Shown here in pieces: positions 2,775 to 45,994 of a stretch of DNA of 64,000 bases. Below the pieces are notes generated by a model that had not been told where the DNA came from, made no database searches, and was given only the letters and a program-made list of their open reading frames with translations. The translations under genes were made by a program, and so were the position numbers. Location: positions 8,991-72,990 of the forward strand of contig CANFZA010000001.1 in assembly GCA_947451235.1 (NCBI GenBank). The letters are read 5' to 3'. The stretch comes from Methylophilaceae bacterium (GTDB lineage Bacteria; Pseudomonadota; Gammaproteobacteria; Burkholderiales; Methylophilaceae). Numbering within the stretch: the stretch's first letter is position 1; every line of letters starts with the position of its first letter.

Positions 2775-3911
2775 CTAAACTATTCCTAAATTATCCAAGC
2801 CTGCAGACACATCTTTGTTATGCGTCGCTTTACCATCTAATTTAATTTTCAAGCGTACATCATTCACAGAGTCGGCAAACCTTAGCGCATCTTCGTAGCT
2901 AATCACATCCGCCTCATGCAGATCAAACAATGACTGATCAAAAGTTTGCATGCCTAGCTCACGAGATTTAGCAATAATCGATTTAATCTCATGCACGTCA
3001 CCTTTAAAAATCAAATCTGAGATCAATGGCGAGTTCAGCATAATTTCGATGGCGGCGGCGCGACCTTTACCTTCTTTTCTAGGAATAAGACGCTGCGATA
3101 CAAAAGCGCGCGTATTGAGCGACAAATCCATGAGCAACTGATGGCGGCGCTCTTCAGGGAAAAAGTTAATGATGCGATCTAAGGCTTGATTGGTACTGTT
3201 GGCATGCAATGTTGCCAAGCATAAGTGGCCAGTTTCAGCAAAGGCGATGGCATAGTCCATCGTTTCACGATCTCGTATTTCACCAATCATAATCACATCT
3301 GGCGCTTGGCGTAAGGTGTTTTTCAAGGCGATTTGCCAACTATCGGTATCAACGCCAATTTCGCGTTGAGTAATAATGCAGTTGTTATGTTCATGCACAA
3401 ACTCAACCGGGTCTTCAATAGTAATAATGTGGCCGTAACTATTCTTATTACGATAACCGACCATAGCCGCGAGTGATGTAGATTTACCTGAACCAGTACC
3501 GCCGACGAAAATCACCAAGCCCCGCTTAGTCATGGCAATGTCTTTTAATACATCGGGCAATCCAAGCTCTTCAAAATCTGGAATTTTAGTGGTGATAGTT
3601 CTGAACACTAAACCGACTGAACCGCGCTGAACGAAGGCATTGACACGAAAACGCGCCACACTGGGCAGGCCAATCGCAAAATTACATTCGTTTGTGGCAT
3701 CAAACTCAGCGCTTTGCTTATCATTCATGATGGCGCGTGAAATTTCACGTGCTTGTTGTGCAGACAATACTTGGCTACTCACTGGCGTTAGCTTGCCATC
3801 GATCTTCATGGCAGGTGGAAAATCAGCCGTAATGAATAAGTCCGAGGCTTTCTTTGCCAACATCAACCGTAATAAATCAAAAACAAACTTTTCTGCCTGA
3901 CCTTTTTCCAT
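2775..3911 (-). CDS. pilU: Type IV pilus retraction-family ATPase PilU
   Basis: Walker A GGTGSGKST, GEIRDRET, His box TGHLCLATLHAN; lacks the PilT AIRNLIRE motif; downstream of pilT. Confidence 0.85.
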   Translation of the reverse strand: MEKGQAEKFVFDLLRLMLAKKASDLFITADFPPAMKIDGKLTPVSSQVLSAQQAREISRAIMNDKQSAEFDATNECNFAIGLPSVARFRVNAFVQRGSVGLVFRTITTKIPDFEELGLPDVLKDIAMTKRGLVIFVGGTGSGKSTSLAAMVGYRNKNSYGHIITIEDPVEFVHEHNNCIITQREIGVDTDSWQIALKNTLRQAPDVIMIGEIRDRETMDYAIAFAETGHLCLATLHANSTNQALDRIINFFPEERRHQLLMDLSLNTRAFVSQRLIPRKEGKGRAAAIEIMLNSPLISDLIFKGDVHEIKSIIAKSRELGMQTFDQSLFDLHEADVISYEDALRFADSVNDVRLKIKLDGKATHNKDVSAGLDNLGIV

Positions 3912-3968
3912 GCCTAATCCTTAATTTGGTACATTGCCGCTAATTTTTTAACTAAAATACATCTCCAG

Positions 3969-5012
3969 TTAGCCAACAATATTATCTTTATTCGCCGCTT
4001 TACTGCGCGCCTCATTAGCCGAAATAACGTTACGTTTGACCAAATCTTGTAGATTCTGATCTAGTGTTTGCATACCCACATTTTGCCCGGTCTGAATGGC
4101 AGAATACATTTGCGGAATTTTGGATTCGCGGATCAAGTTACGAATAGCTGGTGTACCAATCATGATTTCATGTGCGGCAACACGCCCCTGCTCATCTTTC
4201 GTTTTGCACAAAGTTTGTGAAATAACCGCACGTAAAGATTCAGACAACATAGAACGCACCATTTCTTTTTCAGCGGCTGGAAACACATCAATAATACGAT
4301 CGATTGTTTTAGCCGCCGAACTCGTGTGCAAAGTACCAAACACCATGTGGCCGGTTTCTGCTGCGGTTAGCGCTAGGCGTATCGTCTCAAGGTCACGCAA
4401 TTCACCGACTAAAATCACATCGGGATCTTCACGCAAGGCTGAGCGCAACGCGTTATTGAATGAAAGCGTATGCGGACCTACTTCACGTTGATTAATTAGG
4501 CATTTTTTGGAAGTATGGACAAACTCAATCGGATCTTCGACGGTCAGAATATGGCCGAATTCTTTATCGTTAATATAATCTATCATTGCCGCTAACGTGG
4601 TTGATTTACCTGAACCCGTTGGACCAGTCACCAAGCAAAGTCCACGTGGAGTATCGGCAATATCTTTAAAAATGGCTGGGCAGTTTAATTGTTCTAAGGT
4701 CAATATTTTTGACGGAATAGTACGAAATACCGCACCTGAGCCCCGCTGGTGATTGAAGGCATTGACCCGGAAACGTGCCAAATTAGGAATCTCAAAAGAG
4801 AAGTCACACTCTAAAGTCTCTTCATACACTTTACGTTGACCGTCACTCATAATGTCATACACCATATCATGCACTTCGCTATGGCTTAAAGAGGGTACGT
4901 TGATTTTTCGAATATCACCGTGCACGCGAATCATCGGTGGCAAACCGGCTGAAAGATGTAAATCTGAGGCTTTATTTTTAACTGAAAATGCGAGTAAATC
5001 TGAAATGTCCAA
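3969..5012 (-). CDS. pilT: Type IV pilus twitching motility ATPase PilT
   Basis: GPTGSGKSTT, GELRDLET, TGHMVFGTLHTSSA and the PilT signature AIRNLIRE; 347 aa. Confidence 0.95.
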   Translation of the reverse strand: MDISDLLAFSVKNKASDLHLSAGLPPMIRVHGDIRKINVPSLSHSEVHDMVYDIMSDGQRKVYEETLECDFSFEIPNLARFRVNAFNHQRGSGAVFRTIPSKILTLEQLNCPAIFKDIADTPRGLCLVTGPTGSGKSTTLAAMIDYINDKEFGHILTVEDPIEFVHTSKKCLINQREVGPHTLSFNNALRSALREDPDVILVGELRDLETIRLALTAAETGHMVFGTLHTSSAAKTIDRIIDVFPAAEKEMVRSMLSESLRAVISQTLCKTKDEQGRVAAHEIMIGTPAIRNLIRESKIPQMYSAIQTGQNVGMQTLDQNLQDLVKRNVISANEARSKAANKDNIVG

Positions 5013-18044: not shown

Positions 18045-18051
18045 CTGCTTT

Positions 18052-18111
18052 TGTAGGAGCGGCGCTTCGTCGCGATTGCACCATTGCTTCGCGACGAAGC
18101 GTCGCTCCTAC
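18052..18111. repeat. REP family 1 inverted doublet (GTAGGAGCG...CGCGA arms)
   Basis: gtaggagcggcgcttcgtcgcga / 13-nt loop / tcgcgacgaagcgtcgctcctac; 23-bp arms with 1 mismatch. Confidence 0.85.
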
Positions 18112-18466
18112 CAAGTCATGATGATTTTTTTGATGTTTTTGTTAAAATTAAGCGATTCCACTTACTTCCCAACGCTTCCCCGCATAAAACTTTACAAGCT
18201 CACGTTTCACCTGCTCAGTTAGGCTATAAAGCGCGACATCTTGAATCTTTCCAAAACCACATTGTCATTAAACTATCATCCTTGACCAAATACGCTCAAA
18301 CCGTTATGGTGTAGGGTTGGTATATAAGCACTGAAAAACCCACTAAATCTAATAAAAACAAGCGTTAATTTAGTGGAAACACGCAAAATATGGCTAATTA
18401 AACGACCAGTCCTATTAAAAAGCTTAAAAATTTAAAGTAAAAAAAACCTAAAGTAAAAAAACTAGC

Positions 18467-20763: not shown

Positions 20764-21792
<1,029 letters not shown>

Positions 21793-21879
21793 TCTAAATT
21801 TAATAGATCAATCTAAAAACTAAATTTTGGTTTAGGAGAACTTTGCACGAGCGTATTAAAAACTAAAACCTATCAACAC

Positions 21880-21952
21880 CGTCATTCCCGCGTAGGCGGG
21901 AATCCAGTTAACTTGTTGATTCACCTAGATTCCCGCCTACGCGGGAATGACG
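21880..21952. repeat. REP family 2 inverted doublet (GTCATTCC-palindrome-GGAATC), resembles Neisseria ATTCCC-N8-GGGAAT repeats
   Basis: cgtcattcccgcgtaggcgggaatc / 23 nt / gattcccgcctacgcgggaatgacg; each arm is itself a hairpin. Confidence 0.85.
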
Positions 21953-22030
21953 ATAATTGTGGGTTTTATATTTAATTACGGTTGATTAAACTTTGTGCAA
22001 AGGTATATTTAGGTATTTAGTTGAAATTTA

Positions 22031-22062
22031 AAAAGGGCGAGATAACTTCTTGCCCTTTTTTT
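22031..22062. terminator. Bidirectional-looking intrinsic terminator upstream of psd
   Basis: aaaaagggc-13 nt loop-gcccttttttt; A-tract and T-tract flank the stem. Confidence 0.6.
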
Positions 22063-22102
22063 ATTATCCAAAGAAACATTTTATTAAAACAAAGGGTTAA
22101 GC

Positions 22103-22957
22103 ATGCAAGCCAATATTGCCGTACTTTTACAATATATTCTGCCAAAACAAGCCATTACCGCTCTTGCCGGGAAGTTAGCGCATTACCAAGGCGGCAACCT
22201 AACCACCACTGTAATCACTTGGTTTGTAAAACGCTACCAAGTAAACATGGCCGAAGCGGCTGAACCTAACATCAGCACTTATCAAACTTTTAACGATTTC
22301 TTTACACGCCCACTCAAGGCTGGCGCACGCCCACTAGCGCAGGCAGATTTCATTTGCCCTGTAGATGGTGCGATTAGTCAGTTTGGTAAAATTGAAGCCG
22401 ATCAGATTTTTCAGGCAAAAGGCCATGCATATTCCATTACCGCGTTAGTCGGTGGTGAAAAAAATATGGCCAAAAATTATGAAAATGGCCATTTTGCTTG
22501 TTTGTACTTAAGCCCTAAAGATTACCACCGCATACACATGCCTTGCGATGGCACCTTAAAAAGTATGACTTATGTGCCAGGCGCATTATTCTCAGTTAAC
22601 CCAACCACAGCACAAGGCGTACCAGGGCTATTTGCACGCAACGAGCGCGTGGTTTGTGAGTTTACGTCAGCTAAGCACGGAAACTTCGTGATGGTGCTGG
22701 TAGGCGCAACCATTGTAGGTAGCATGGCAACCGTTTGGCATGATACTAACAACGGCATTATTAACCCGCCACGCACCGGCAAAACCCGTACTTGGACTTA
22801 CGAACAGCAAAACATCAGCCTAAAACAAGGCGACGAAATGGGCAGATTTTTACTAGGCTCAACCGTAGTCATGTTATTTGAAAAAGAAGCACTGGAATTT
22901 AACCCAACTTGGCAAGCAACACGCCCGATAAAACTCGGCGAGATGATGGGGAAATAA
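22103..22957 (+). CDS. psd: Phosphatidylserine decarboxylase proenzyme
   Basis: 284 aa; autocleavage motif FLLGSTVV (Ser253 codon at 22859-22861). Confidence 0.93.
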   Translation: MQANIAVLLQYILPKQAITALAGKLAHYQGGNLTTTVITWFVKRYQVNMAEAAEPNISTYQTFNDFFTRPLKAGARPLAQADFICPVDGAISQFGKIEADQIFQAKGHAYSITALVGGEKNMAKNYENGHFACLYLSPKDYHRIHMPCDGTLKSMTYVPGALFSVNPTTAQGVPGLFARNERVVCEFTSAKHGNFVMVLVGATIVGSMATVWHDTNNGIINPPRTGKTRTWTYEQQNISLKQGDEMGRFLLGSTVVMLFEKEALEFNPTWQATRPIKLGEMMGK

Positions 22958-23567
22958 TTGTAGGAGCGGCGCCTCGCCGCGAAAAATGGCGCAACTTTCA
23001 CCATCGCTATCGCGGCGAGGGCGCCGCTCCTATCTATCAACCGTGGTGATGTTATTTGAAAAAGAAGTACTGGAGTTTAATCCAGCTTGGCAAGCTTCAT
23101 GCCCGATAAAACTCGGCGAGATGATGGGAAAATAACGGTAGGAGCGGCGCCTCGCCGCGAAAAATGGCGCAACTTTCACCGTCGCTATCGCGGCGAGGGC
23201 GCCGCCCCTACCTATCAACCGTGGTGATGCTATTTGAAAAAGAAGTACTGAAATTTAACCCAACTTGGCAAGCTGCACGCCCGATAAAACTAGGCGAGAT
23301 GATGGGGAAATAATTGTAGGAGCGGCGCCTCGCCGCGAAAAATGGCGCAACTTTCACCATCGCTATCGCGGCGAGGGCGCCGCTCCTACCTATCAACCGT
23401 GGTGATGCTATTTGAGAAAGAAGCACTGGAATTTAACCCAGCTTGGCAAGCTACACGCCCGATAAAACTAGGCGAGTTGATGGGGAAATAATTGTAGGAG
23501 CGGCGCCCCGCCGCGAAAAATGGCGCAATCTTCACCGTCGCTATCGCGGCGAGGGCGCCGCTCCTAC
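22859..23567 (+). repeat. 178-bp x4 tandem array: psd alpha-chain segment (32 codons + TAA) plus REP family 1 doublet
   Basis: Units start at 22859 (native), 23037, 23215, 23393; REP doublets at 22960-23032, 23138-23211, 23316-23389, 23494-23567. Confidence 0.95.
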
Positions 23568-23639
23568 ATACGACTTTTCAAGCGCTTTAGCGCTTAGAAA
23601 ATCGGAGTGCCCATGGTGCTGAATTATTTAACAACCTAG

Positions 23640-24125
23640 TTACTTTACAACCTTATGATGTAAATGTGGTGCCAACTCGTTTAACGCTGATTCATACACG
23701 GCGCGCTTAAACTCAATCACATCTTCTAGCGGCACCCAATATTCGCTCCAGCGCCAGGCATCAAACTCTGGATGTTCAGAAGCGCGTAGTGAAACATCAG
23801 AATCGCGCCCTACCATGCGTAGTAAATACCAAATCTGCTTTTGACCTTTATAGCTACCGCGATACTCGCGTTTTACCCAAGTAGTCGGCACTTCATATCT
23901 CAGCCAATCTTTAGTGCGACCCAAAATTTGCACGTGCTCAGGCTTTAAACCTACCTCTTCCATTAACTCACGATACATAGCCTGCTCTGGGCTTTCGCCA
24001 TGGTTAATACCACCTTGCGGAAACTGCCAAGCATGCTCACGGATACGCTTACCCCAAAAAACCTGATTGTTTGCATTACATATAATAATGCCAACATTCG
24101 GGCGAAACCCGTCACGATCTAACAT
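23640..24125 (-). CDS. rppH: RNA pyrophosphohydrolase RppH (NudH)
   Basis: [15 protein letters not shown]..., Nudix box [23 protein letters not shown]; 161 aa. Confidence 0.92.
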
Positions 24126-24213
24126 AGCCTTATACTGCCTTAATTATTTAGTGTAATTTTTTCATATTTTGAGCATTATTGAAAGCAACCATTTGCGTAT
24201 AATACATAAGCCT

Positions 24214-25206
24214 ATGAAAACACACTCAATTAAATCCTTGAAAATTAATCACTTTATTGTTTTTTTGCTCGCCTGCGCGGTAAATAGCATTTGCCATGCT
24301 GAAACCAAGCCGCTCAACCACAATTTTGCTTACATTACCAATCAAGGCGAAGATACGGTTTCGGTGATTGATACTGCATTAAATCAAGTCATTAACACCA
24401 TTAAAGTCGGAAAAGCACCGGTTGGCATTGCCGTTTCTAGCACCTTACAACGCGTGTATATTTCAAACGTTGAAAGCCAAGATATTAGCGTGATTGATGC
24501 AAGCAACAACACAGTTATCGACACCATTAAAATCAAAGGTTCACCGGTAGGCTTAGCCTTATCGCCAGATAGCAAAACGTTATATATCGCCGATTGGTTT
24601 GATAATCGCATATTGGCCATGAGCACAGCGCAAACGAATAGCATACGCGAAGTAAACGTAGGCGATGCGCCCGCTGGCTTAACGCTAAGCCCCGATAAAC
24701 AATGGCTCTATGTAGCCAACCGCGACAGCAACGACATTGCCATTATCGACACCGCAACACTCAGCATTAACAAACGCATTAAAGTGGGCAAGCATCCTTA
24801 TGGCGTGTTTATAAGCGCCACTGGCAAATACCTAGTAAGCGTCAATGTAAGAGATGACAGCGTGAGCATTATTAACACTAAAACCAATGCACAAAAGAAG
24901 ATAAAAGTCGGTTATCACCCTTATTGTGCGGCCATGAGTGCCGATGAAAAAACCCTATACGTGACCAACACCCAAGATGACAGCGTGACGGTGTTAAACA
25001 TTGCCACACAAAAACCCATCGCCACTATTGATGTTGGCAACACGCCTGAAGGCATTAGCATAGACGATGCTAATCACCGTGCCTATATCGCCAATTGGGG
25101 TAGTAACAGCGTTAGCGTGATAGATACCACGACCAATAAATTATTAACTACGATTAAAACAGGCGAAAAAAGCCGCGCTTTTGGCCAGTTTATTTTAGTT
25201 AAATAA
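24214..25206 (+). CDS. Secreted YVTN-family beta-propeller repeat protein
   Basis: Signal peptide ending CHA-ETKP; about 40-aa repeats with DTVSVID / DISVIDAS / DIAIIDTA / SVSIINT / SVTVLNIA / SVSVIDTT; ORF opens at 24169, likely start ATG 24214. Confidence 0.8.
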   Translation: MKTHSIKSLKINHFIVFLLACAVNSICHAETKPLNHNFAYITNQGEDTVSVIDTALNQVINTIKVGKAPVGIAVSSTLQRVYISNVESQDISVIDASNNTVIDTIKIKGSPVGLALSPDSKTLYIADWFDNRILAMSTAQTNSIREVNVGDAPAGLTLSPDKQWLYVANRDSNDIAIIDTATLSINKRIKVGKHPYGVFISATGKYLVSVNVRDDSVSIINTKTNAQKKIKVGYHPYCAAMSADEKTLYVTNTQDDSVTVLNIATQKPIATIDVGNTPEGISIDDANHRAYIANWGSNSVSVIDTTTNKLLTTIKTGEKSRAFGQFILVK

Positions 25207-25432
25207 TCACAGCAGTTAATTTTGCGCTGAACATAACGACGCTAGCAAGCCAGCCGTGTCAACCAAGGCAAAGCCGCTTCGTTATCACAGGTGCAAGTAA
25301 GCAAGCATTTTATAAGTCTTGATTCTAATTAATCACTGTTCTCATTTATAATGCCTACGTATTTTTGAATAACCCCTCTCATATTGAGAGTTTTAAAGCC
25401 TCTCAATCACTGAGAGTTTTGGAGAAAGTTAC

Positions 25433-25984
25433 ATGAAAAAGATTTTAGCAATCATCGCACTTGGTTTAAGCATCAGTTTAGTGCCGTACTCTGCATCAGC
25501 ACACGGTCCATCACCACAAAAAGTTGAAAAAAGCATCACTATCAAAGCAGACCCTGCAAAAGTTTGGGCAATTGTTAAAGATTTCGGTGGCATTCACAAA
25601 TGGCATCCGGGCGTAGCCAGCACTAAGTTAGAACAGAAAAAAGATGACAATGGCGACATGGCGACTTACAGAACATTGACGTTTAAAGACGGTGGCAATG
25701 TGTTTGAGAAATTACGCAGCGCAGACGATGCAACGATGAAACTTAAATATGAAATCGTAACAGGCACACTACCGTTAACAGACTACAACGCAGTAATGAC
25801 TGTCACTAAAGGTGAAAATGCTGGCGAAACTACGGTTACATGGGTAGGCCGCTTTTACCGTTTATACAAACTTAACCCACCAATTCCAGCGGGTCAAGAT
25901 GATGAAACAGCGATTAAAGCCATCACAGGTGTGTTTGATTCTGGTTTAGCTAACTTGAAAAAGGTAGCAGAAGGTTCAAAGTAG
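25433..25984 (+). CDS. Secreted SRPBCC (polyketide cyclase/dehydrase-fold) protein, MxaD-like
   Basis: Signal peptide ...YSASA-HGPSP; about 160-aa mature START/SRPBCC-like domain (KVWAIVKDFGGIHKWHPGV); MxaD assignment is from memory of the family, not a search. Confidence 0.6.
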   Translation: MKKILAIIALGLSISLVPYSASAHGPSPQKVEKSITIKADPAKVWAIVKDFGGIHKWHPGVASTKLEQKKDDNGDMATYRTLTFKDGGNVFEKLRSADDATMKLKYEIVTGTLPLTDYNAVMTVTKGENAGETTVTWVGRFYRLYKLNPPIPAGQDDETAIKAITGVFDSGLANLKKVAEGSK

Positions 25985-26005
25985 CAGACCGTAAAGAAGT
26001 GACTA

Positions 26006-26041
26006 AAAGGTCACTTTGGGAATTTTTAAGTGACCTTTTTT
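26006..26041 (+). terminator. Intrinsic terminator of the SRPBCC gene
   Basis: aaaggtcactt / 11-nt loop / aagtgaccttt followed by TTT; perfect 11-bp stem. Confidence 0.75.
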
Positions 26042-26074
26042 GACACTTTTTTGCGGTTGTAATAAAAAATATTA

Positions 26075-26136
26075 GTTTGAAACAGTCTTGAAATAAGTGC
26101 TCACTAAAAGGCGGAACTTAATGTTCCGCTTTTTTT
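26075..26136 (+). ncRNA. Candidate small RNA bounded by its own promoter-like element and an orphan terminator
   Basis: TTGACA (26040-26045), 17-nt spacer, TAAAAA; then gcggaac-ttaat-gttccgc + 7 T (26111-26136); no ORF in between. Confidence 0.25.
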
Positions 26137-26161
26137 ATTGTGCACTCACCGTAGTCTTTTA

Positions 26162-26222
26162 AGATGGGCGCGAATTTATTCGCGATTTTCAGGTGACAAA
26201 TCGCGAATACATTCGCTCCTAC
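26162..26222. repeat. Degenerate REP family 1 doublet
   Basis: Right arm tcgcgaatacattcgctcctac is intact; left arm (ggcgcgaatttattcgcga) has lost the GTAGGA flank. Confidence 0.6.
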
Positions 26223-26289
26223 AATTACAAAACCACAAAAAACACTGCTCTGCGAGGCAATAGACACGGGCTTCGCAGAGCAGTGTTTG

Positions 26290-26386
26290 GTAGGAGCGGC
26301 GCCCTCGCCGCGAAGCAATCGCGCTAGTTAAGGAAATGCAGCGGTAATAAGTGGGATAGCAATCGCGGCGAGGGCGCCGCTCCTAC
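26290..26386. repeat. REP family 1 inverted doublet with long (about 50 nt) spacer
   Basis: gtaggagcggcgccctcgccgcga ... tcgcggcgagggcgccgctcctac; arms match the right-hand arm of the psd-array REPs. Confidence 0.85.
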
Positions 26387-26448
26387 CAACAGCAATACGT
26401 GACTATTATTGCTAGGATTAACGATAATCGTGCGCTCTAAATAATAGT

Positions 26449-26464
26449 TGGCACAGCTATTGCA
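26449..26464 (+). promoter_or_regulatory. Sigma-54 (RpoN) -24/-12 promoter of the pilin gene
   Basis: TGGCAC-agcta-TTGCA, exact match to the TGGCAC-N5-TTGCA consensus, about 70 nt upstream of the pilA ATG. Confidence 0.85.
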
Positions 26465-26535
26465 TTGCAATAACCAAGCACTAAAATTTTTTACCCAGTG
26501 TGAGAACACTTAAAATTTATTTAAAGGATTTCAAA

Positions 26536-26877
26536 ATGAAACAAGTTCAAAAAGGTTTTACCTTGATTGAGTTGATGATTGTTGTTGCGATTATTGGTAT
26601 TTTGGCTGCTGTTGCGTTGCCTCAATATCAAACTTATACAAAAAAAGCTGCTGATACTGCATGTCTTGCTGAAGCTACAGGGATTGCACATGGTGCGGCA
26701 GCTGCAATAGCTAATAATGACGCAGCTTTATTATCACTAACACCTGCCAGTGCTTGTAATAAAGCTGGTCCGACTACTGTACCGACAACGTTTACTGATT
26801 CATATACAGCACCTAAAGGCAATAGTACTAAATCAATCAATTGCGACTACAATACCGGCACTTGCGTAATTAGCTAA
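26536..26877 (+). CDS. pilA: Type IVa major pilin
   Basis: Prepilin leader [32 protein letters not shown]; C-terminal disulfide loop C-DYNTGT-C then VIS-stop; ORF opens at 26500 but ATG 26536 gives the canonical short leader. Confidence 0.95.
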
Positions 26878-26903
26878 CTTTCCATTCTAGCTAATTGATT
26901 GAC

Positions 26904-26933
26904 AAAAAAAGAGGCCTAAGGCCTCTTTTTTTT
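26904..26933 (+). terminator. Strong intrinsic terminator after pilA
   Basis: aaaaaaagaggcc-taa-ggcctcttttttttt. Confidence 0.85.
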
Positions 26934-26991
26934 GATAATCTCACCAGTACCTGCTTAGCCGTCAATATGTGATTTATTTGAGGATGTCATT

Positions 26992-28443
26992 TTGAAAGAA
27001 ATTAAAAATCGAGAACTCATAATGACTCATCTAAAAACTTCAATCACATTTAAGTTCGTTATTTTTTTAGTATTTATTAGCCTAATCAGCTTATCGCCCA
27101 GCCTAAACATCATTCCAAAAATCCTAATTGAAACAAGCTTCCACGATAGCCAACGCTTACTAGAACTATTACTAATAGCTCTAATCTTGCTTCATAGCAT
27201 TATATTTAGAAGCCAAAACTCATATTTCACCGCAATCCCCAATATCCGTTACGCCTTTTATGTATTAATCACACTAGCCATTGCTTCAGCATATCTAGCC
27301 AAATCCCCCCGTCACGCCATCATCGAAGTCAGCCTATTTTCCGGTTTAAGTTACCTGACTTTATTTGTCGTCAATTTGTACCATGAAAATAATACGCGAT
27401 TAATCAAATGGCTGACTTACGCCTTTTGGGCGGGCATTTTGTTGTCTATGGTTTCGTTTTACGTGGGCTATATTACTGCCACTACTTTCAGCACCCCTTT
27501 GGTATGGCCTAACCCTTTAACCGGTTTCAGCAACATCCGATCATTTAATCAATACCAACTTTGGACTTTAGGCTTAATTACCTTACCGCTACTTACTTTA
27601 GATTTTAAAAGCGCACAAACGCGTCGCTACTTACATTTTGGCTTGGTTTGCTGGTGGGTGTTACTTTTTTATTCAGCTTCACGTGGCGCATTATTGGCTT
27701 GGTTGGTTGGCCTGTTAGCCACGGCTGTTATTTACCGAAAATTGGCTTGGCCGTTTATACGCTTACAGCTTATGCATATCACGGCAGGCTTTATCAGCTA
27801 TCAAATATTATTTAAATTTATACCAAACCTTAGAGGCTCGGCTTTAGTGACAGGTACGATTATGCGAGATACCTCTAGTGACCGACTCGAGTTATGGCGC
27901 TTATGTATTGCTATTATTCAAGACCACCCAATTTTTGGTGTTGGTCCTATGCATTTTGCTTGGGTTAGCCAGACCAGCGCGCATCCGCATAATAGCGTGT
28001 TGCAAATTATGGCTGAATTCGGCTTACCGGCAGCTTTAATCATATTAGCGATGGCATTCTATGGCTTACGCTGTTGGCTAAAGAGATTTAGCCTTAAAAA
28101 CCTGCAAGCTGACACAACACTAAACTCCACTTTGGCGATTGTATTGTTTTTCACAATAGTCACTAACGCGGCGTATTCCTTAGTAGATGGCGTAATCGTG
28201 ATGCCGATTAGCCAAGTAATGCTGTTTACTTTTATCGGGCTAATGATTGCTTTTTATAGTCACGGCCATGTGGTTGAAGTAAAAAGAAAGTCAGTCTTGA
28301 TGCCGATTATGGCTGGCGTTGTCTTAATTGCTTTAATCTCCTCAACTTTGCCGGAAATATTACAAAGTGCTTCCGGCAGCGAAAAAAGATTCTCCATGGC
28401 TTATACCGCAAGCGGGCCGCGTATTTGGTTAGAGCTTAAGTAA
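26992..28443 (+). CDS. O-antigen ligase (Wzy_C) family membrane protein, TfpO/PilO-like pilin glycosyl ligase
   Basis: More than 10 TM segments; Wzy_C-type loop HPHNSVLQIMAEFGLP; directly downstream of pilA; TTG start with GAGGA 7 nt upstream (alternative ATG 27022); visibly AT-richer than neighbours. Confidence 0.75.
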   Translation: MKEIKNRELIMTHLKTSITFKFVIFLVFISLISLSPSLNIIPKILIETSFHDSQRLLELLLIALILLHSIIFRSQNSYFTAIPNIRYAFYVLITLAIASAYLAKSPRHAIIEVSLFSGLSYLTLFVVNLYHENNTRLIKWLTYAFWAGILLSMVSFYVGYITATTFSTPLVWPNPLTGFSNIRSFNQYQLWTLGLITLPLLTLDFKSAQTRRYLHFGLVCWWVLLFYSASRGALLAWLVGLLATAVIYRKLAWPFIRLQLMHITAGFISYQILFKFIPNLRGSALVTGTIMRDTSSDRLELWRLCIAIIQDHPIFGVGPMHFAWVSQTSAHPHNSVLQIMAEFGLPAALIILAMAFYGLRCWLKRFSLKNLQADTTLNSTLAIVLFFTIVTNAAYSLVDGVIVMPISQVMLFTFIGLMIAFYSHGHVVEVKRKSVLMPIMAGVVLIALISSTLPEILQSASGSEKRFSMAYTASGPRIWLELK

Positions 28444-33367: not shown

Positions 33368-33427
33368 TATGTCTGAAACATGTTACCTAATGCAAATTTA
33401 GGAAATAATGACCTAGAATCGGCTTTT

Positions 33428-33483
33428 GTAGGAGCGGTCTGTGACCGCGAAAGAGATGGTTCGCGGTCACAGACCGCTCCTAC
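33428..33483. repeat. REP family 1 inverted doublet
   Basis: gtaggagcggtctgtgaccgcga / aagagatggt / tcgcggtcacagaccgctcctac; perfect 23-bp arms. Confidence 0.9.
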
Positions 33484-33555
33484 AAAAACATATAGGGGAC
33501 TAACATTATTGACGAGGCTAGCTATAGGCTCAAACTATAGACTCAAACTATAGCC

Positions 33556-35051: not shown

Positions 35052-35729
35052 TTATACTTTATTTTCTAGGCTAGCTAATAAATAACCTAAACCACGAATG
35101 GTACGAATTTCTATACCAAATACGTTCAACTTTTTACGCAAGCGCGATATATTGACCTCTACCGCGTTTTCACTCATTTCCTCATCCCAGCTACATAAAT
35201 GTTCTAATATTTTAGCTTTACTCACCACTTTGGTGGCTTTAAGCATCAACAATTCCATCAAGGCCACTTCTCGCTGAGACAATGAAAGTGGCACGTTTTG
35301 AAACAAACATTGACGATTACTGGTATCAAACACCAAATCACCAAAGGTTATTTTGGCACTGCCGCCAGAAATACCACGGCGAATTAGCGCCCTCACTCTA
35401 GCTTCTAATTCGTCAAGTTCAAAAGGCTTGGTTAAGTAATCATCCGCGCCCAAGTCTAGTCCTTTAACGCGATTCCGCGTATCTTCTAGCGCCGTTAAAA
35501 TAAGTACAGGCGTTTTATTGCCACGCGCACGTAGCCGTTTCAGCACCTCAAAACCGTCCAATTTTGGCAAACCTAAATCCAGCACAATGACATCATATTC
35601 CTGATACGTAAGTAATTTATTGGCGCTATCGCCATCGCTCATCACGTCAACGGCATAACCAGACTTGCTGAAGGCACGCTCCAGTCCGTCTTTAAGAATC
35701 AAATCATCTTCAACTAATAGTAATCTCAA
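35052..35729 (-). CDS. OmpR/PhoB-family response regulator
   Basis: MRLLLVEDD, phospho-acceptor DVIVLDLGLPKLDG, LTKPF, winged-helix C-terminus TIRGLGYLL. Confidence 0.93.
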   Translation of the reverse strand: MRLLLVEDDLILKDGLERAFSKSGYAVDVMSDGDSANKLLTYQEYDVIVLDLGLPKLDGFEVLKRLRARGNKTPVLILTALEDTRNRVKGLDLGADDYLTKPFELDELEARVRALIRRGISGGSAKITFGDLVFDTSNRQCLFQNVPLSLSQREVALMELLMLKATKVVSKAKILEHLCSWDEEMSENAVEVNISRLRKKLNVFGIEIRTIRGLGYLLASLENKV

Positions 35730-35916: not shown

Positions 35917-36006
35917 TAGTTTTACTAATATAGTTTTATATTGACTTAGTTTTATATTGACTTAGTTTTATATTGACCCAGTTTCATAAGCCTAGTTTTA
36001 ACAAAC
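35917..36006 (+). promoter_or_regulatory. Six iterated TAGTTTTA boxes (three full 16-bp units tagttttatattgacY) in the divergent RR / asr-like intergenic region
   Basis: Boxes at 35917, 35931, 35947, 35963, 35979 (variant cagtttca), 35993; TTGACT/TTGACT/TTGACC hexamers at 35941, 35957, 35973. Confidence 0.6.
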
Positions 36007-43011: not shown

Positions 43012-44730
43012 ATGTCAACTGTTACCACATCCAATAAACTGAGCGGACTAGCCCGCACGCTAATTCAAGAAAGATTACTCTCTGAAGATGAGGCAAATGC
43101 TATTCAAATGCAGGCGAACTCAATTAAAGCGCCGTTTATTACACAACTTATTCTAAGCAGAAAATTAACGGCAAAAACCGTTGCAGAAACCTCAGCAAAA
43201 GCCTTTGGATTTCCCTACTTTAACTTAGATGCATTCAATGCAGATTATCTGCCTGCGAAAAAGATAGACGCAAAATTAATGCAGACTAATCGAGTGATGG
43301 CACTGCAAGTTCGCAATAATTTACTGTTTGTTGCCATTTCAGACCCGACAAATCTTCACGCGCTAGATAGCGTGCAGTTTCAAATGGGCATGGCGTTATC
43401 GCCAGTAGTGGTTGAAGATGATAAGTTAGGCCGCTGGATAGATAAAATCATTGAATCTAACGATGTCAGCATGAAGTCGCTGGATACCAATGATGACTTT
43501 GATTTGGGCGGAGACCTTACCGAACAAGTTGAAGATGAAGTGCAATCGCAGGAAGTTGACGATGCGCCTGTGGTTAGATTTTTAAACAAAATGTTGATAG
43601 ATGCCATCAATATGGGCGCCTCTGATTTGCATTTTGAACCCTATGAAAAATTTTACCGTGTTAGATACCGCGTAGACGGCATTTTGCGTGAAATCACCCA
43701 ACCACCACTCGCGATTAAAGAAAAGTTAGCGTCTAGAATTAAAGTAATTTCCAGTATGGACATCTCAGAAAAGCGCATACCGCAAGATGGGCGCATGAAG
43801 TTGGTGTTATCCAAAACACGCACTATTGATTTTCGGGTAAGCACGTTACCGCTGATTAATGGCGAAAAAATCGTGATGCGGATTTTAGATCCAACCAGCG
43901 CAACCTTAGGTATTGAGGCTTTAGGTTACGAAGTTGAACAAAAAGAAGCTTTATTAGGCGCGATTAGCCGTCCTTATGGCCTAGTGCTGGTCACAGGGCC
44001 AACTGGTTCAGGTAAAACGGTGTCGCTTTACACCTGCCTGAATATATTAAATAACCCTGGCGTTAATATTGCAACGGCAGAAGATCCTTGTGAAATACCG
44101 CTGGCCGGCATCAACCAAGTGAACGTAAACGACAAACAAGGGCTGACTTTTGCCGCTGCGTTAAAATCGTTCTTACGGCAAGATCCTGACATTATTATGA
44201 TTGGTGAAATTCGTGATTTAGAAACGGCTGACATGGCGATTAAAGCTGCTTCTACAGGCCACATGGTGCTTTCTACCTTACATACTAATGATGCCCCTTC
44301 TACACTTACGCGCTTATTAAATATGGGTGTAGCACCATTCAACATCGCATCGGCAGTATCGCTCATTACCGCTCAACGTTTAGCCAGACGTTTATGTAAA
44401 AGCTGTAAAATACCAATTGATGTCCCAAAAGAAGCGCTACTTGGCGTAGGTTTTACTGAAGAAGATTTGGATGGATCTTGGCAGCTATATGGTCCTAAAG
44501 AAGATGGCTGTGAAATGTGTAACAATGGCTATAAAGGCCGCGTAGGTATTTATCAAGTAATGCCGATTACCGATGCCATTAGTCGCATTATTATGAAAAG
44601 TGGCACCGCGCACGACATTGCTGATCAGGCAAAACTTGAAGGCGTTAAAGACTTACGGCAATCTGGGCTACTTAAAGTAAAACAAGGTCTAACCTCAATT
44701 GAAGAAGTTGAATCTTGTACCAATGAATAA
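43012..44730 (+). CDS. pilB: Type IV pilus assembly ATPase PilB
   Basis: 572 aa; GPTGSGKTVS, DPDIIMIGEIRDLETA, TGHMVLSTLHTNDA, tetra-Cys CKSC...CEMC; followed by pilC. Confidence 0.93.
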   Translation: MSTVTTSNKLSGLARTLIQERLLSEDEANAIQMQANSIKAPFITQLILSRKLTAKTVAETSAKAFGFPYFNLDAFNADYLPAKKIDAKLMQTNRVMALQVRNNLLFVAISDPTNLHALDSVQFQMGMALSPVVVEDDKLGRWIDKIIESNDVSMKSLDTNDDFDLGGDLTEQVEDEVQSQEVDDAPVVRFLNKMLIDAINMGASDLHFEPYEKFYRVRYRVDGILREITQPPLAIKEKLASRIKVISSMDISEKRIPQDGRMKLVLSKTRTIDFRVSTLPLINGEKIVMRILDPTSATLGIEALGYEVEQKEALLGAISRPYGLVLVTGPTGSGKTVSLYTCLNILNNPGVNIATAEDPCEIPLAGINQVNVNDKQGLTFAAALKSFLRQDPDIIMIGEIRDLETADMAIKAASTGHMVLSTLHTNDAPSTLTRLLNMGVAPFNIASAVSLITAQRLARRLCKSCKIPIDVPKEALLGVGFTEEDLDGSWQLYGPKEDGCEMCNNGYKGRVGIYQVMPITDAISRIIMKSGTAHDIADQAKLEGVKDLRQSGLLKVKQGLTSIEEVESCTNE

Positions 44731-44770
44731 TCAGGCTAAAATGCAATGCTAACGATGACAGGGATTAGAA

Positions 44771-45994
44771 ATGGCAGTTAATGCTAAAGCCACTAAAGAG
44801 GTGACCTACTCTTGGGAAGGCAAAGACAAAAAAGGAAAAATCATTAAAGGCGAAATGCGCGCCACGGGTGATTCTTTTGTTAACGCCACCCTGCGCCGCC
44901 AAGGCATTATTGTCACTAAAGTAAAGAAAAAGAGTAGCTTTGAAAGTAAAGGAAGCATCTCAGATAAAGACATTACGCTTTTTACCAGACAGTTAGCCAC
45001 CATGATGAAGGCCGGCGTGCCTTTATTAATGTCATTTGATATTGTTGGCAAAGGCCATAGCAACCCAGCCGTTGCCAAGCTATTAATGGACATTAAATCC
45101 GATGTAGAAACCGGTAGCAGCATGAGTGCTGCGTTCCGAAAATATCCGCTATATTTTGACGCGCTTTTTTGCAATTTGATTGGCGCGGGTGAACAAGCCG
45201 GTATTTTGGATACGCTACTAGACCGCCTTGCTACCTATAAAGAAAAAATCCAAGCAATTAAATCTAAAATTAAATCTGCGCTATTTTATCCAATTTCAAT
45301 TGTCGTCGTTGCCTTTGTCATTGTTGCTGTGATCATGATTTTTGTCATTCCAGCATTTAAAGATTTGTTTGATGGTTTTGGTGCTGAATTACCAGCGCCT
45401 ACCTTGATAGTCATGGCGATTTCTGAAATATTTGTGCAGTGGTGGTGGGCTATTTTTGGTGCTATCGGTGGCGCCATTTGGTTTTTCTTCTACACATGGA
45501 AGCGCTCTTTAACCATGCAAGCAACTATGGATAGATTGATCCTTAAAGTGCCAGTTTTTGGCGCTTTAGTACGTAAAGCCACTATTGCGCGTTGGTCACG
45601 CACGCTAGCCACCATGTTTTCTGCCGGTGTTCCGCTGGTAGAAGCCTTAGACTCTGTCGCCGGTGCAGCTGGAAACAGAGTTTATTATGATGCGACAAAA
45701 AAAATACAGAGTGAAATTAGTACCGGCACCAGTTTGACTGTTGCTATGCAAAATACCAATGTTTTCCCTAACATGGTCATACAGATGACGTCTATTGGCG
45801 AAGAGTCAGGTTCTCTAGATTCTATGCTGAGTAAAGTAGCGGACTTCTTTGAAGCTGAAGTAGATGATGCGGTTGATGCACTGGCCAGCTTGATGGAGCC
45901 AGTGATTATGGTGGTGCTGGGCACTATCATCGGCGGCTTGGTCGTTGCAATGTATCTGCCGATATTCAAAATGGGGTCAGTCATTACTGGCTAG
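44771..45994 (+). CDS. pilC: Type IV pilus platform protein PilC (GspF family)
   Basis: 407 aa, two T2SSF repeats, 3 TM, FPNMVIQMTSIGEESGSLD. Confidence 0.93.
   Translation: MAVNAKATKEVTYSWEGKDKKGKIIKGEMRATGDSFVNATLRRQGIIVTKVKKKSSFESKGSISDKDITLFTRQLATMMKAGVPLLMSFDIVGKGHSNPAVAKLLMDIKSDVETGSSMSAAFRKYPLYFDALFCNLIGAGEQAGILDTLLDRLATYKEKIQAIKSKIKSALFYPISIVVVAFVIVAVIMIFVIPAFKDLFDGFGAELPAPTLIVMAISEIFVQWWWAIFGAIGGAIWFFFYTWKRSLTMQATMDRLILKVPVFGALVRKATIARWSRTLATMFSAGVPLVEALDSVAGAAGNRVYYDATKKIQSEISTGTSLTVAMQNTNVFPNMVIQMTSIGEESGSLDSMLSKVADFFEAEVDDAVDALASLMEPVIMVVLGTIIGGLVVAMYLPIFKMGSVITG

Follow-up and report, generated by a model that had tools for sequence, protein, structure and literature searches.

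A tandem array of psd 3' ends and hairpin spacers in a Methylophilaceae bacterium: a probable REPIN cluster with coding sequence as its repeated flank

Results

The 3' end of psd is present four times in tandem

We analyzed a 64,000-nucleotide stretch of a Methylophilaceae bacterium genome (NCBI GenBank assembly GCA_947451235.1, contig CANFZA010000001.1, positions 8,991 to 72,990), hereafter the window, in which the 3' end of psd, encoding the phosphatidylserine decarboxylase proenzyme (Psd), is followed by further copies of itself, each ending in a hairpin composed of two inverted repetitive extragenic palindromic (REP) sequences, a REP doublet or REPIN. Residues 63-283 of Psd match the Pfam domain PS_Dcarbxylase (PF02666, 1.6e-63), and 7938 homologues were found with E<=1e-100. 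Tandem Repeats Finder (TRF) reported a single tandem array at the 3' end of the gene, spanning 22859-23567 with a period of 178, 4.0 copies, 92% matches, 0 indels and a score of 1215 (Table 1).

Each 178-bp unit consists, in order, of the last 99 nt of psd (STVVMLF...MMGK and the TAA stop codon), 2 nt (TT or CG), the 74-nt REPIN and 3 nt, that is, of a 5' flank of 99+2 nt, a REPIN and a 3-nt 3' flank, giving an array of ~712 bp. The 3-nt end is CTA at all three internal junctions, each of which reads CTA-TCAACC, and ATA after the last unit. The left boundary of the repeat lies exactly between GGC and TCA, the codons of Gly252 and Ser253 in the LGST self-cleavage motif (residues 251-254), so that the repeat opens with the Ser253 codon (22859-22861). 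The reading frame and the TAA stop are intact in each of the three extra cassettes. An earlier note, made from the sequence alone, had described four units starting at 22859, 23037, 23215 and 23393, a boundary at Ser253 and intact frames in the extra cassettes; TRF and unit extraction bore out all of these points.

Table 1. Coordinates of the psd array, its neighbours and other REPINs in the window
Feature	Position	Strand	Remarks
psd, phosphatidylserine decarboxylase proenzyme, 284 aa	22103..22957	+	sole copy joined to the gene body; open reading frame (ORF) list, Pfam
Repeat unit 1	22859..23036	+	native alpha-chain tail 22859-22957 including TAA, REPIN 1 22960-23033, CTA; TRF, unit extraction, RNA fold
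Repeat unit 2	23037..23214	+	silent cassette c2 (STVVMLFEKEVLEFNPAWQASCPIKLGEMMGK, then stop), REPIN 2 23138-23211; most diverged, 8 private changes
Repeat unit 3	23215..23392	+	silent cassette c3 (…EVLKFNPTWQAARP…), REPIN 3 23316-23389; equals unit 1 over unit positions 79-174
Repeat unit 4	23393..23570	+	silent cassette c4 (…NPAWQATRPIKLGELMGK, then stop), REPIN 4 23494-23567, then ATA, the ancestral flank state
Unique spacer, array to rppH stop codon	23568..23639	+	part 23568-23619 also at the second locus, L091
rppH-like NUDIX hydrolase gene, convergent with psd	23640..24125	-	Pfam NUDIX 7.3e-24
REPIN, same REP subtype as the array	26287..26389		perfect 27-nt arms, different 49-nt loop
REPIN, sister subtype (GTAGGAGCGGCGCTTCGTCGCGA)	18050..18114
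REPIN, further sister subtype	33424-33487

The same four copies occur in other assemblies

The copies differ at 24 of the 178 positions, and the longest identical stretch between any two of them is 96 bases; with identity so limited, the junction between a REPIN end and a cassette start must exist in the reads. The same four diverged copies were found in two other assemblies. A 100-kb ENA contig (L082) matches window 21930-27125 with one mismatch, located in the psd body, and a contig of an NCBI metagenome-assembled genome (MAG; L083, CANEXM010000033.1) matches window 23012-27125 with seven, all outside the array, at 24864-24954; these concordant assemblies represent near-identical strains and are uninformative on copy-number variation. 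We regard the four copies as real, and as a minimum, because identical extra copies would collapse in assembly. The seven L083 differences all fall within a 91-nt stretch of a beta-propeller gene (24864-24954), a clustering of the kind that a short patch of recombination between otherwise identical strains would leave.

The spacers are GTAG-type REP doublets

The 74-nt REPIN is built of GTAGGAGCGGCGCC-TCGCCGCGA, a 27-nt loop and TCGCGGCGAGGGCGCCGCTCCTAC as inverted repeat, such that every spacer contains the GTAG-tagged GTAGGAGCGGCGCC(C)TCGCCGCGA and an inverted partner ending in CTCCTAC, which places it in the GTAG super-family as PMC3733652 defines it. The arms, of 23 and 24 nt with one bulged G, form an inverted-REP hairpin with a predicted RNA folding energy of -56.2 kcal/mol (z=-6.7), and none of 200 shuffled sequences was equally stable. 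Six matches to the REP arm were found against 0 expected, a dispersal observed within the 64 kb examined. This recurrence of the arms elsewhere in the window identifies the spacer element as a GTAG-type REP doublet, a REPIN; the array subtype, with the same loop, is also present at a second locus, L091, described below.

A Pfam scan of 46 window ORFs detected no Y1_Tnp domain (the mark of a REP-associated tyrosine transposase, RAYT), integrase or transposase, and Rfam returned no family at threshold within 21700-24300. A consensus scan for promoters and terminators gave counts no higher than those of shuffled sequences, and found no canonical terminator in the array.

The first REPIN begins only 2 nt past the psd stop codon (TAA TT GTAGG; window 22955-22962). 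For E. coli REPs this near a stop codon, effects on the translation termination and expression of the upstream gene have been reported. On the other side of psd, between ilvC and psd, lies a CGTC-tagged inverted repeat pair (CGTCATTCCCGCGTAGGCGGGAATC … GATTCCCGCCTACGCGGGAATGACG; window 21880-21952) that resembles the Neisseria-type ATTCCC…GGGAAT repeats; a similar element is found downstream of psd in the related locus L017, and the ENA contig L082 begins inside the pair, at window 21930. Its position beside GTAG REPINs indicates that both REP family types co-exist in this genome.

Related loci carry one psd tail

The best psd matches belong to Methylotenera (Methylophilaceae) MAGs. We fetched 91 related psd loci (L001-L080, L087-L090), 87 of which extend beyond the psd stop codon, the other four lying on contigs that end too early. 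The earlier note had pointed to the psd 3' flanks of relatives as a place to look for the array, and extra psd-tail copies were present in 0 of the 87. Moreover, a tblastn search with a 34-aa tail query found no second psd tail in 80 psd loci of GTDB species representatives, TRF found no other REP-containing long-period array in all fetched loci, and a scan of JGI metagenomes for a REP end followed by STVVMLF coding sequence gave only two matches, both unrelated chance matches.

The psd-rppH neighbourhood is kept in L001-L018 and L087. A single REP or REPIN directly follows the psd stop codon in L001-L004, where its subtype varies, and likewise in L087-L090, four closer psd alleles with 92-95% amino acid identity to the window. 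Among these four, L087 combines one psd tail with another REPIN subtype; in L088 a different, short hairpin (GTAGGCGCAAATATTTTCGCACCTAC, 950-985) is followed by ATACGATTTT; L089 has the same REPIN start, at which its contig ends; and L090 has a collapsed version of the array REP, a single hairpin TTAGGAGCGGCGAGGCGCCGCTCC (1006-1031), followed by ATACGACTTTTCAAGCGCTTTAGCGCTTA, which is the window's right flank. The collapsed L090 hairpin is consistent with a deletion between the GGCG repeats of a REPIN. After their hairpins, L088 and L090 read ...CTAC/CTCC-ATACGA. The single REPIN and the ATACGA flank of the relatives point to an ancestral order of psd, one REPIN, ATACGAC… and rppH.

L088 and L090 also show REPIN decay at the psd-stop site in close relatives. 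Synonymous divergence (dS) between the window and these close relatives is 0.31-0.59. For rppH it is 0.31-0.34 and for psd 0.36-0.47; a recombination boundary between the two genes was considered, and none was obvious, as the dS of rppH is about that of psd.

Variants are shared among the copies, including the expressed one

Five sites at which the copies divide 2:2 cover all three possible partitions (sites 16 and 78; site 32; sites 49 and 145). Over unit positions 79-174 (96 nt) copy 1 matches copy 3 exactly, whereas the first 61 positions hold 7 differences between them (run test, p=0.04), and a derived Thr codon at site 49 is common to the expressed copy and silent cassette c3. This mosaic makes gene conversion or unequal exchange among the copies likely, the expressed copy included.

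The three private synonymous changes of copy 1 all lie within its first 60 nt; ordinary homologous recombination that exchanged psd for another allele may have brought this part in, a suggestion drawn from very few sites. Type IV pilus genes are located in the window at 2775-5012, 26500-26877 and 43012-45994 (two T2SSE ATPases, a T2SSF platform protein and a pilin with an N-methylation motif); they make DNA uptake by transformation conceivable, which bears on the idea of allelic replacement.

Changes in the silent cassettes resemble ordinary allelic variation

Compared with the native tail, the three cassettes differ at 10, 8 and 8 positions, of which 6, 5 and 6 are synonymous, exactly reproducing the hand counts of the earlier note. 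The spacers differ from that of unit 1 at 5, 1 and 6 of 79 positions, so the range of 1-5 given in the note held for the first two and not for the third. Its statement that the coding part is more diverged than the spacer was not sustained, since 15 of 99 coding sites vs 9 of 79 spacer sites are variable (p=0.51) and only the c1-c3 pair reaches p=0.045.

From the excess of synonymous changes the note had concluded that the cassettes are not decaying neutrally. The excess is nominally there: depending on the transition bias assumed, the neutral synonymous fraction is 0.22-0.30 here, and all changes together (9 synonymous, 7 non-synonymous) lie above it (p=0.003-0.026). We polarised the changes using the four close psd alleles. 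At sites 9 and 60 the silent-copy state (GTG GTG … GCT) is found in 4/4 of these alleles, and at site 12 in 3/4 (L089 has A); since the close alleles match the silent copies at these sites, three synonymous changes belong to the branch of the expressed copy. Without these three, 6 synonymous and 7 non-synonymous changes are left (p=0.05-0.17), and the changes private to single silent cassettes number 4 and 4 (p=0.08-0.19), with a density in the coding part (8/297, 2.7%) like that in the spacer (7/237, 3.0%; p=1). The excess thus rests on changes of the expressed copy, and the proposed selection on the cassettes is not borne out by their own private changes, nor by the plainly dead copy at L091 described below.

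Among true psd alleles, the synonymous to non-synonymous ratios in the tail are 5:5, 5:3, 4:3 and 8:5, and the ratio of non-synonymous to synonymous differences per site (pN/pS) is ~0.17-0.27 in the tail, with an omega of ~0.05 in the gene body. The cassette ratios therefore match what normal variation among alleles produces in this tail, which is only weakly constrained. Furthermore, when cassette variants were compared with psd alleles elsewhere, a check suggested in the note, most of them (Ala>Val, Glu>Lys, Thr>Ala twice and Met>Leu) turned out to be natural polymorphisms of the close alleles. Only a Ser and a Cys are private residues, both in copy 2, the Cys replacing an Arg. In all, each cassette departs from the native tail in 2-4 residues, at sites that are free to vary between species, and this does not amount to substantial, maintained diversity.

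Two further copies outside the array

Searching with an out-of-frame ORF that spans cassette, REPIN and junction recovered two further sequences, P0122 and P0123. P0122 is a called ORF of 58 aa on a 653-nt contig (NCBI GCA_041443065.1). In it, MLFEKETLEFNPTWQASRPIKLGELMG is followed by the REPIN, read in the +1 frame, and by TYQ, which the CTA-TCAA junction encodes; a one-base insertion (+1 frameshift) removes the cassette stop codon. To judge from its sequence, P0122 is another array-type unit, a new mosaic of the same variable states, and its frameshift indicates that silent cassettes are not always kept intact.

P0123 led to a 58-kb contig, L091 (k141_2800287, ENA ERZ27280210), which comes from the same sample as L082 and may not belong to the window's genome. 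L091 positions 2826-3131, which match window 23313-23619 at 84.6%, lie between a gene for a hemL-like aminotransferase and one for a 1530-aa product. The structure between these genes contains, in order, a REPIN with perfect arms and a different loop (REPIN_A), ATA, a degenerate psd tail ((S)IVVMLFEKEVLEFNPAWQATHPIKLGGMMEK, then stop) with one base lost at the junction, a second REPIN (REPIN_B) whose loop and one-base arm deletion are the same as in the array REPINs, and ~52 nt homologous to window 23568-23619. This unique right flank of the window matched no repeat family in the data examined. The L091 structure is an ectopic copy of the distal array unit together with its junction and unique right flank.

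The ATA at the L091 junction is the ancestral flank state and supports …CTAC-ATA/(T)CAACC as the founding join, the A having changed to C later but before the units were amplified. L091 differs from the array cassettes at 13-15 coding and 3-5 REPIN positions; the REPIN being less changed than the coding part, REPINs are conserved in their own right, and this accounts for the mildly lower spacer divergence. Its private changes comprise 4 synonymous and 4 non-synonymous ones even though the copy is plainly dead, and some of them match other natural alleles. Because the copy reaches into the unique spacer past REPIN_B, it is not a clean REPIN-bounded transposition.

Another repeat in the window

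Elsewhere in the window, a 16-nt unit (TTATATTGACTTAGTT) occurs in 3-4 tandem copies at 35920-35983, upstream of a response-regulator gene (35052-35729, - strand), and may be an array of regulatory binding sites.

Discussion

Combining these results, we consider it probable, at roughly 70%, that the array is a tandemly repeated REPIN cluster whose repeated 5' flank is the last 32 codons of psd. The extra copies look like drifting, occasionally recombining leftovers, and not like a working cassette system. The earlier note knew of no described system like this for psd; tandem REPIN clusters with flanking DNA in the unit have in fact been described (PMC3116915, PMC3733652). Pseudomonas fluorescens SBW25 contains 16 ordered REPIN clusters per genome, in whose units a REPIN stands between a 5' flank (f1) and a shorter 3' flank (f2), the largest holding four REPINs over more than 700 bp (PMC3116915, Bertels & Rainey 2011, text and Fig. 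S7). The psd array, with four REPINs in 712 bp, has all of these structural features (the GTAG tag, inverted REPs and a flank within the unit), and like the SBW25 clusters it is arranged head-to-tail, extragenic and downstream of a gene. It differs in its host, a Methylotenera (Betaproteobacteria), in its copies, which are 6-10% diverged and mosaic whereas those of SBW25 are "nearly identical", and in its f1, which is coding and comprises the complete alpha-chain part, in frame from the self-cleavage serine. What is new is therefore the psd alpha-chain tail as the repeated flank, the arrangement itself being already known.

The location also agrees with what is known of GTAG REPs, which often abut stop codons, are found by preference after convergent or co-directional genes, and form clusters of dimers repeated in tandem, together with variable lengths of flanking DNA (PMC3733652, Di Nocera et al. 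2013). Such REP clusters, or bacterial interspersed mosaic elements, share with the psd array the GTAG palindromes, the tandem dimers and the position near stop codons and convergent genes, but repeat mainly REPs and short linkers, whereas more than half of the psd unit (99/178 nt) is a gene fragment.

We propose the following history for such a cluster. In the ancestor, as seen in relatives, psd would have been followed 2 bases past its stop codon by a GTAG-type REPIN, then by ATACGAC... and the convergent rppH. One illegitimate join, linking the base after the REPIN (…CTCCTAC-ATA) to the GGC/TCA point within psd, would have created a 178-bp duplication, possibly provoked by the hairpin through a replication stall or a nick made by a REP-associated transposase or gyrase. 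The identical internal junctions and the exact period of 178 without indels argue for one founding join followed by amplification, in which unequal homologous crossing-over could have raised the number to four. Only copy 1, fused to the psd body, would be translated, leaving copies 2-4 in 3' untranslated or intergenic DNA. Three sources of substitution would then have been at work: purifying selection on copy 1, possibly with allelic replacement of its 5' part; conversion or unequal exchange that includes copy 1 and spreads variants once screened in the expressed position; and neutral decay of the silent copies, amounting to ~3% private change in coding sequence and spacer alike. The slightly better conservation of the REPIN part would follow from REPINs being conserved in their own right.

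Several observations weigh against this account. A residual synonymous excess is left (6 synonymous and 7 non-synonymous changes vs a neutral 22-30%, p=0.05-0.17), and with only 8 to 16 changes there is little test power either way. Copy 1 has three private synonymous changes in ~20 synonymous sites, above the ~3% predicted for private change, and its first 60 nt may derive from another allele. The join lacks microhomology, and the three concordant assemblies may come from related samples. That the repeat starts in frame and exactly where the alpha chain begins is the one feature left unexplained, best treated as coincidence, the chance of an in-frame boundary alone being 1 in 3. Finally, the search for a RAYT was confined to the 64-kb window.

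Such an enzyme is at the centre of an alternative that we think unlikely, in which a RAYT acts on single-stranded DNA, cutting out the unit (or a composite of REPIN, cassette and REPIN) at CT or CA dinucleotides close to REP hairpins and re-inserting it beside a REPIN. REPINs would then carry passenger host DNA and yield both tandem copies and a copy at a second locus, and the L091 cassette is indeed flanked by two REPINs, with the array-type junction included. TnpA-REP enzymes cleave in vitro at CT/CA 5' or 3' of GTAG REPs and carry out strand transfer (PMC8266576). The left boundary GGC/TCA falls within a CT dinucleotide, and a join without microhomology is what an enzyme-made break would leave. 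CT dinucleotides are, however, too common to be diagnostic, and the right boundary ATA/CGA has none; ~52 nt of unique psd-rppH spacer lie past the right REPIN of L091, so that side is not REPIN-bounded, and L091 is better explained as a segment copied ectopically through an anchor in REP homology. Nor was a RAYT present among the 46 ORFs scanned.

More doubtful is a functional reservoir of silent cassettes, retained since their conversion into the expressed 3' end would provide useful alpha-chain variants. The mosaic pattern with its tract shared between c1 and c3, the derived Thr codon at site 49, the natural polymorphisms among the cassette variants, the retention of frame and stop in 3/3 window cassettes and the yet different mosaic of P0122 would all fit. 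Psd, a housekeeping inner-membrane enzyme, is not known to benefit from variation. Only 2-4 residues differ, at freely varying positions; the private changes, of which half are non-synonymous, reach the density seen in the spacer and include the Arg-to-Cys of c2; P0122 is frame-shifted; the array is found in 0/87 related loci with sequence past the psd stop; and at the observed divergence an indel-free 32-codon frame in three copies is expected by chance. Of the exchange with a silent reservoir considered in the earlier note, the exchange, expressed copy included, is thus likely in view of the partitions and the c1-c3 tract, and the maintenance of a reservoir is not supported. The silent cassettes of Neisseria pilE/pilS are similarly tandem, promoterless partial copies near an expressed gene, separated by repeats and with signs of non-reciprocal exchange; by contrast, the psd product is a housekeeping enzyme instead of a surface antigen, and the diversity of its cassettes is minimal, within allelic variation, with no sign of selection and in one lineage only.

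We give still less credence to serial displacement, which the note had raised as repeated insertions and in which the units are former functional psd ends, each displaced downstream by its own insertion or recombination event, which supplied a new end and REPIN, for example from another strain. Within its first 60 nt copy 1 has three synonymous sites that set it apart from copies 2-4, and its last 100 nt equal those of copy 3, a pattern consistent with an imported allelic psd segment ending inside the cassette; the synonymous divergence of copy 1 from the other copies in the tail (pS 0.24-0.29) equals that between species-level alleles, and natural transformation is conceivable given the pilus genes. 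Against this, independent events would not repeat the 178-nt period, the GGC/TCA start and the CTA junction three times, single-copy donors lack the CTA junction, and no integrase or transposase was found in the window; replacement of an allele in copy 1 is ordinary homologous recombination and fits the REPIN-cluster explanation without serial insertion. The 3'-end duplications (attL/attR) that stem from integrative elements targeting gene ends likewise place a displaced 3' end downstream of an intact gene, but between the psd copies there is no element, only 178-bp units with identical junctions, and no integrase.

Integron arrays, too, hold short promoterless ORF pieces that are each followed by an imperfect hairpin with one extrahelical base. 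In the psd array, by contrast, all "cassettes" are the same gene fragment and the hairpin is a genome-wide REP (GTAGGAGCGG…CCGCTCCTAC), not an attC site with RYYYAAC/GTTRRRY cores. An attC reading was rejected on the hairpin feet GTAGGAGCGG / CCGCTCCTAC, the junction CTA-TCAACC and the lack of an integrase among the 46 ORFs.

An assembly artefact, named in the earlier note as a way to refute the array, or a chimera chaining co-existing strain alleles in tandem, has in our view a very small chance of being correct. Every source is a metagenome-derived assembly, the short contigs L081, L083 and L089 break at the array locus, and a variant cassette lies on a separate 653-nt contig in another assembly. 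Single-copy loci, however, cannot yield the junction of REPIN end, CTA and TCAACC; the copies differ on average every ~7 nt and share no identical stretch longer than 96 bases, which leaves a k=141 graph without ambiguity; the array sequence is identical in three assemblies; and artefactual repeats are expected to be identical, whereas these copies are 6-10% diverged. Translation of the cassettes as free alpha-chain peptides, the last option of the note, can practically be dismissed: in-frame ORFs of 49 aa do exist, starting at an ATG within each REPIN loop and extending across each cassette, and GTG-GTG-ATG stands near each cassette start, but no Shine-Dalgarno-like sequence precedes GTGGTGATG or the loop ATG, the start lies within a -56 kcal/mol hairpin, an exact look-up of the unit 3 cassette ORF (23164-23313) returned no called gene on record, the cassettes have no Pfam match, and, the pyruvoyl group of Psd arising only by serinolysis (self-cleavage) within the folded proenzyme, a separately made alpha peptide would be inert.

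Read as a REPIN cluster, the array is a clean, datable example of such a cluster capturing coding sequence, and reveals no new psd-related system. It also calls for caution with dN/dS on tiny repeats, as silent fragments beside an expressed gene may look "selected" through exchange with the expressed copy, and a comparison that includes the expressed copy's own filtered changes mimics selection as well. The copy at L091 suggests that REPIN homology can spread adjacent host DNA, which bears on how REPIN clusters form. In a wider and decidedly unlikely scenario, REPINs in this Methylotenera lineage are carriers of host DNA, with a RAYT or REP-anchored recombination copying a gene's 3' end and REPIN both in tandem and to distant sites such as L091, and with tails occasionally converted back into psd; if this were true, REPINs would shuffle and replace gene ends.

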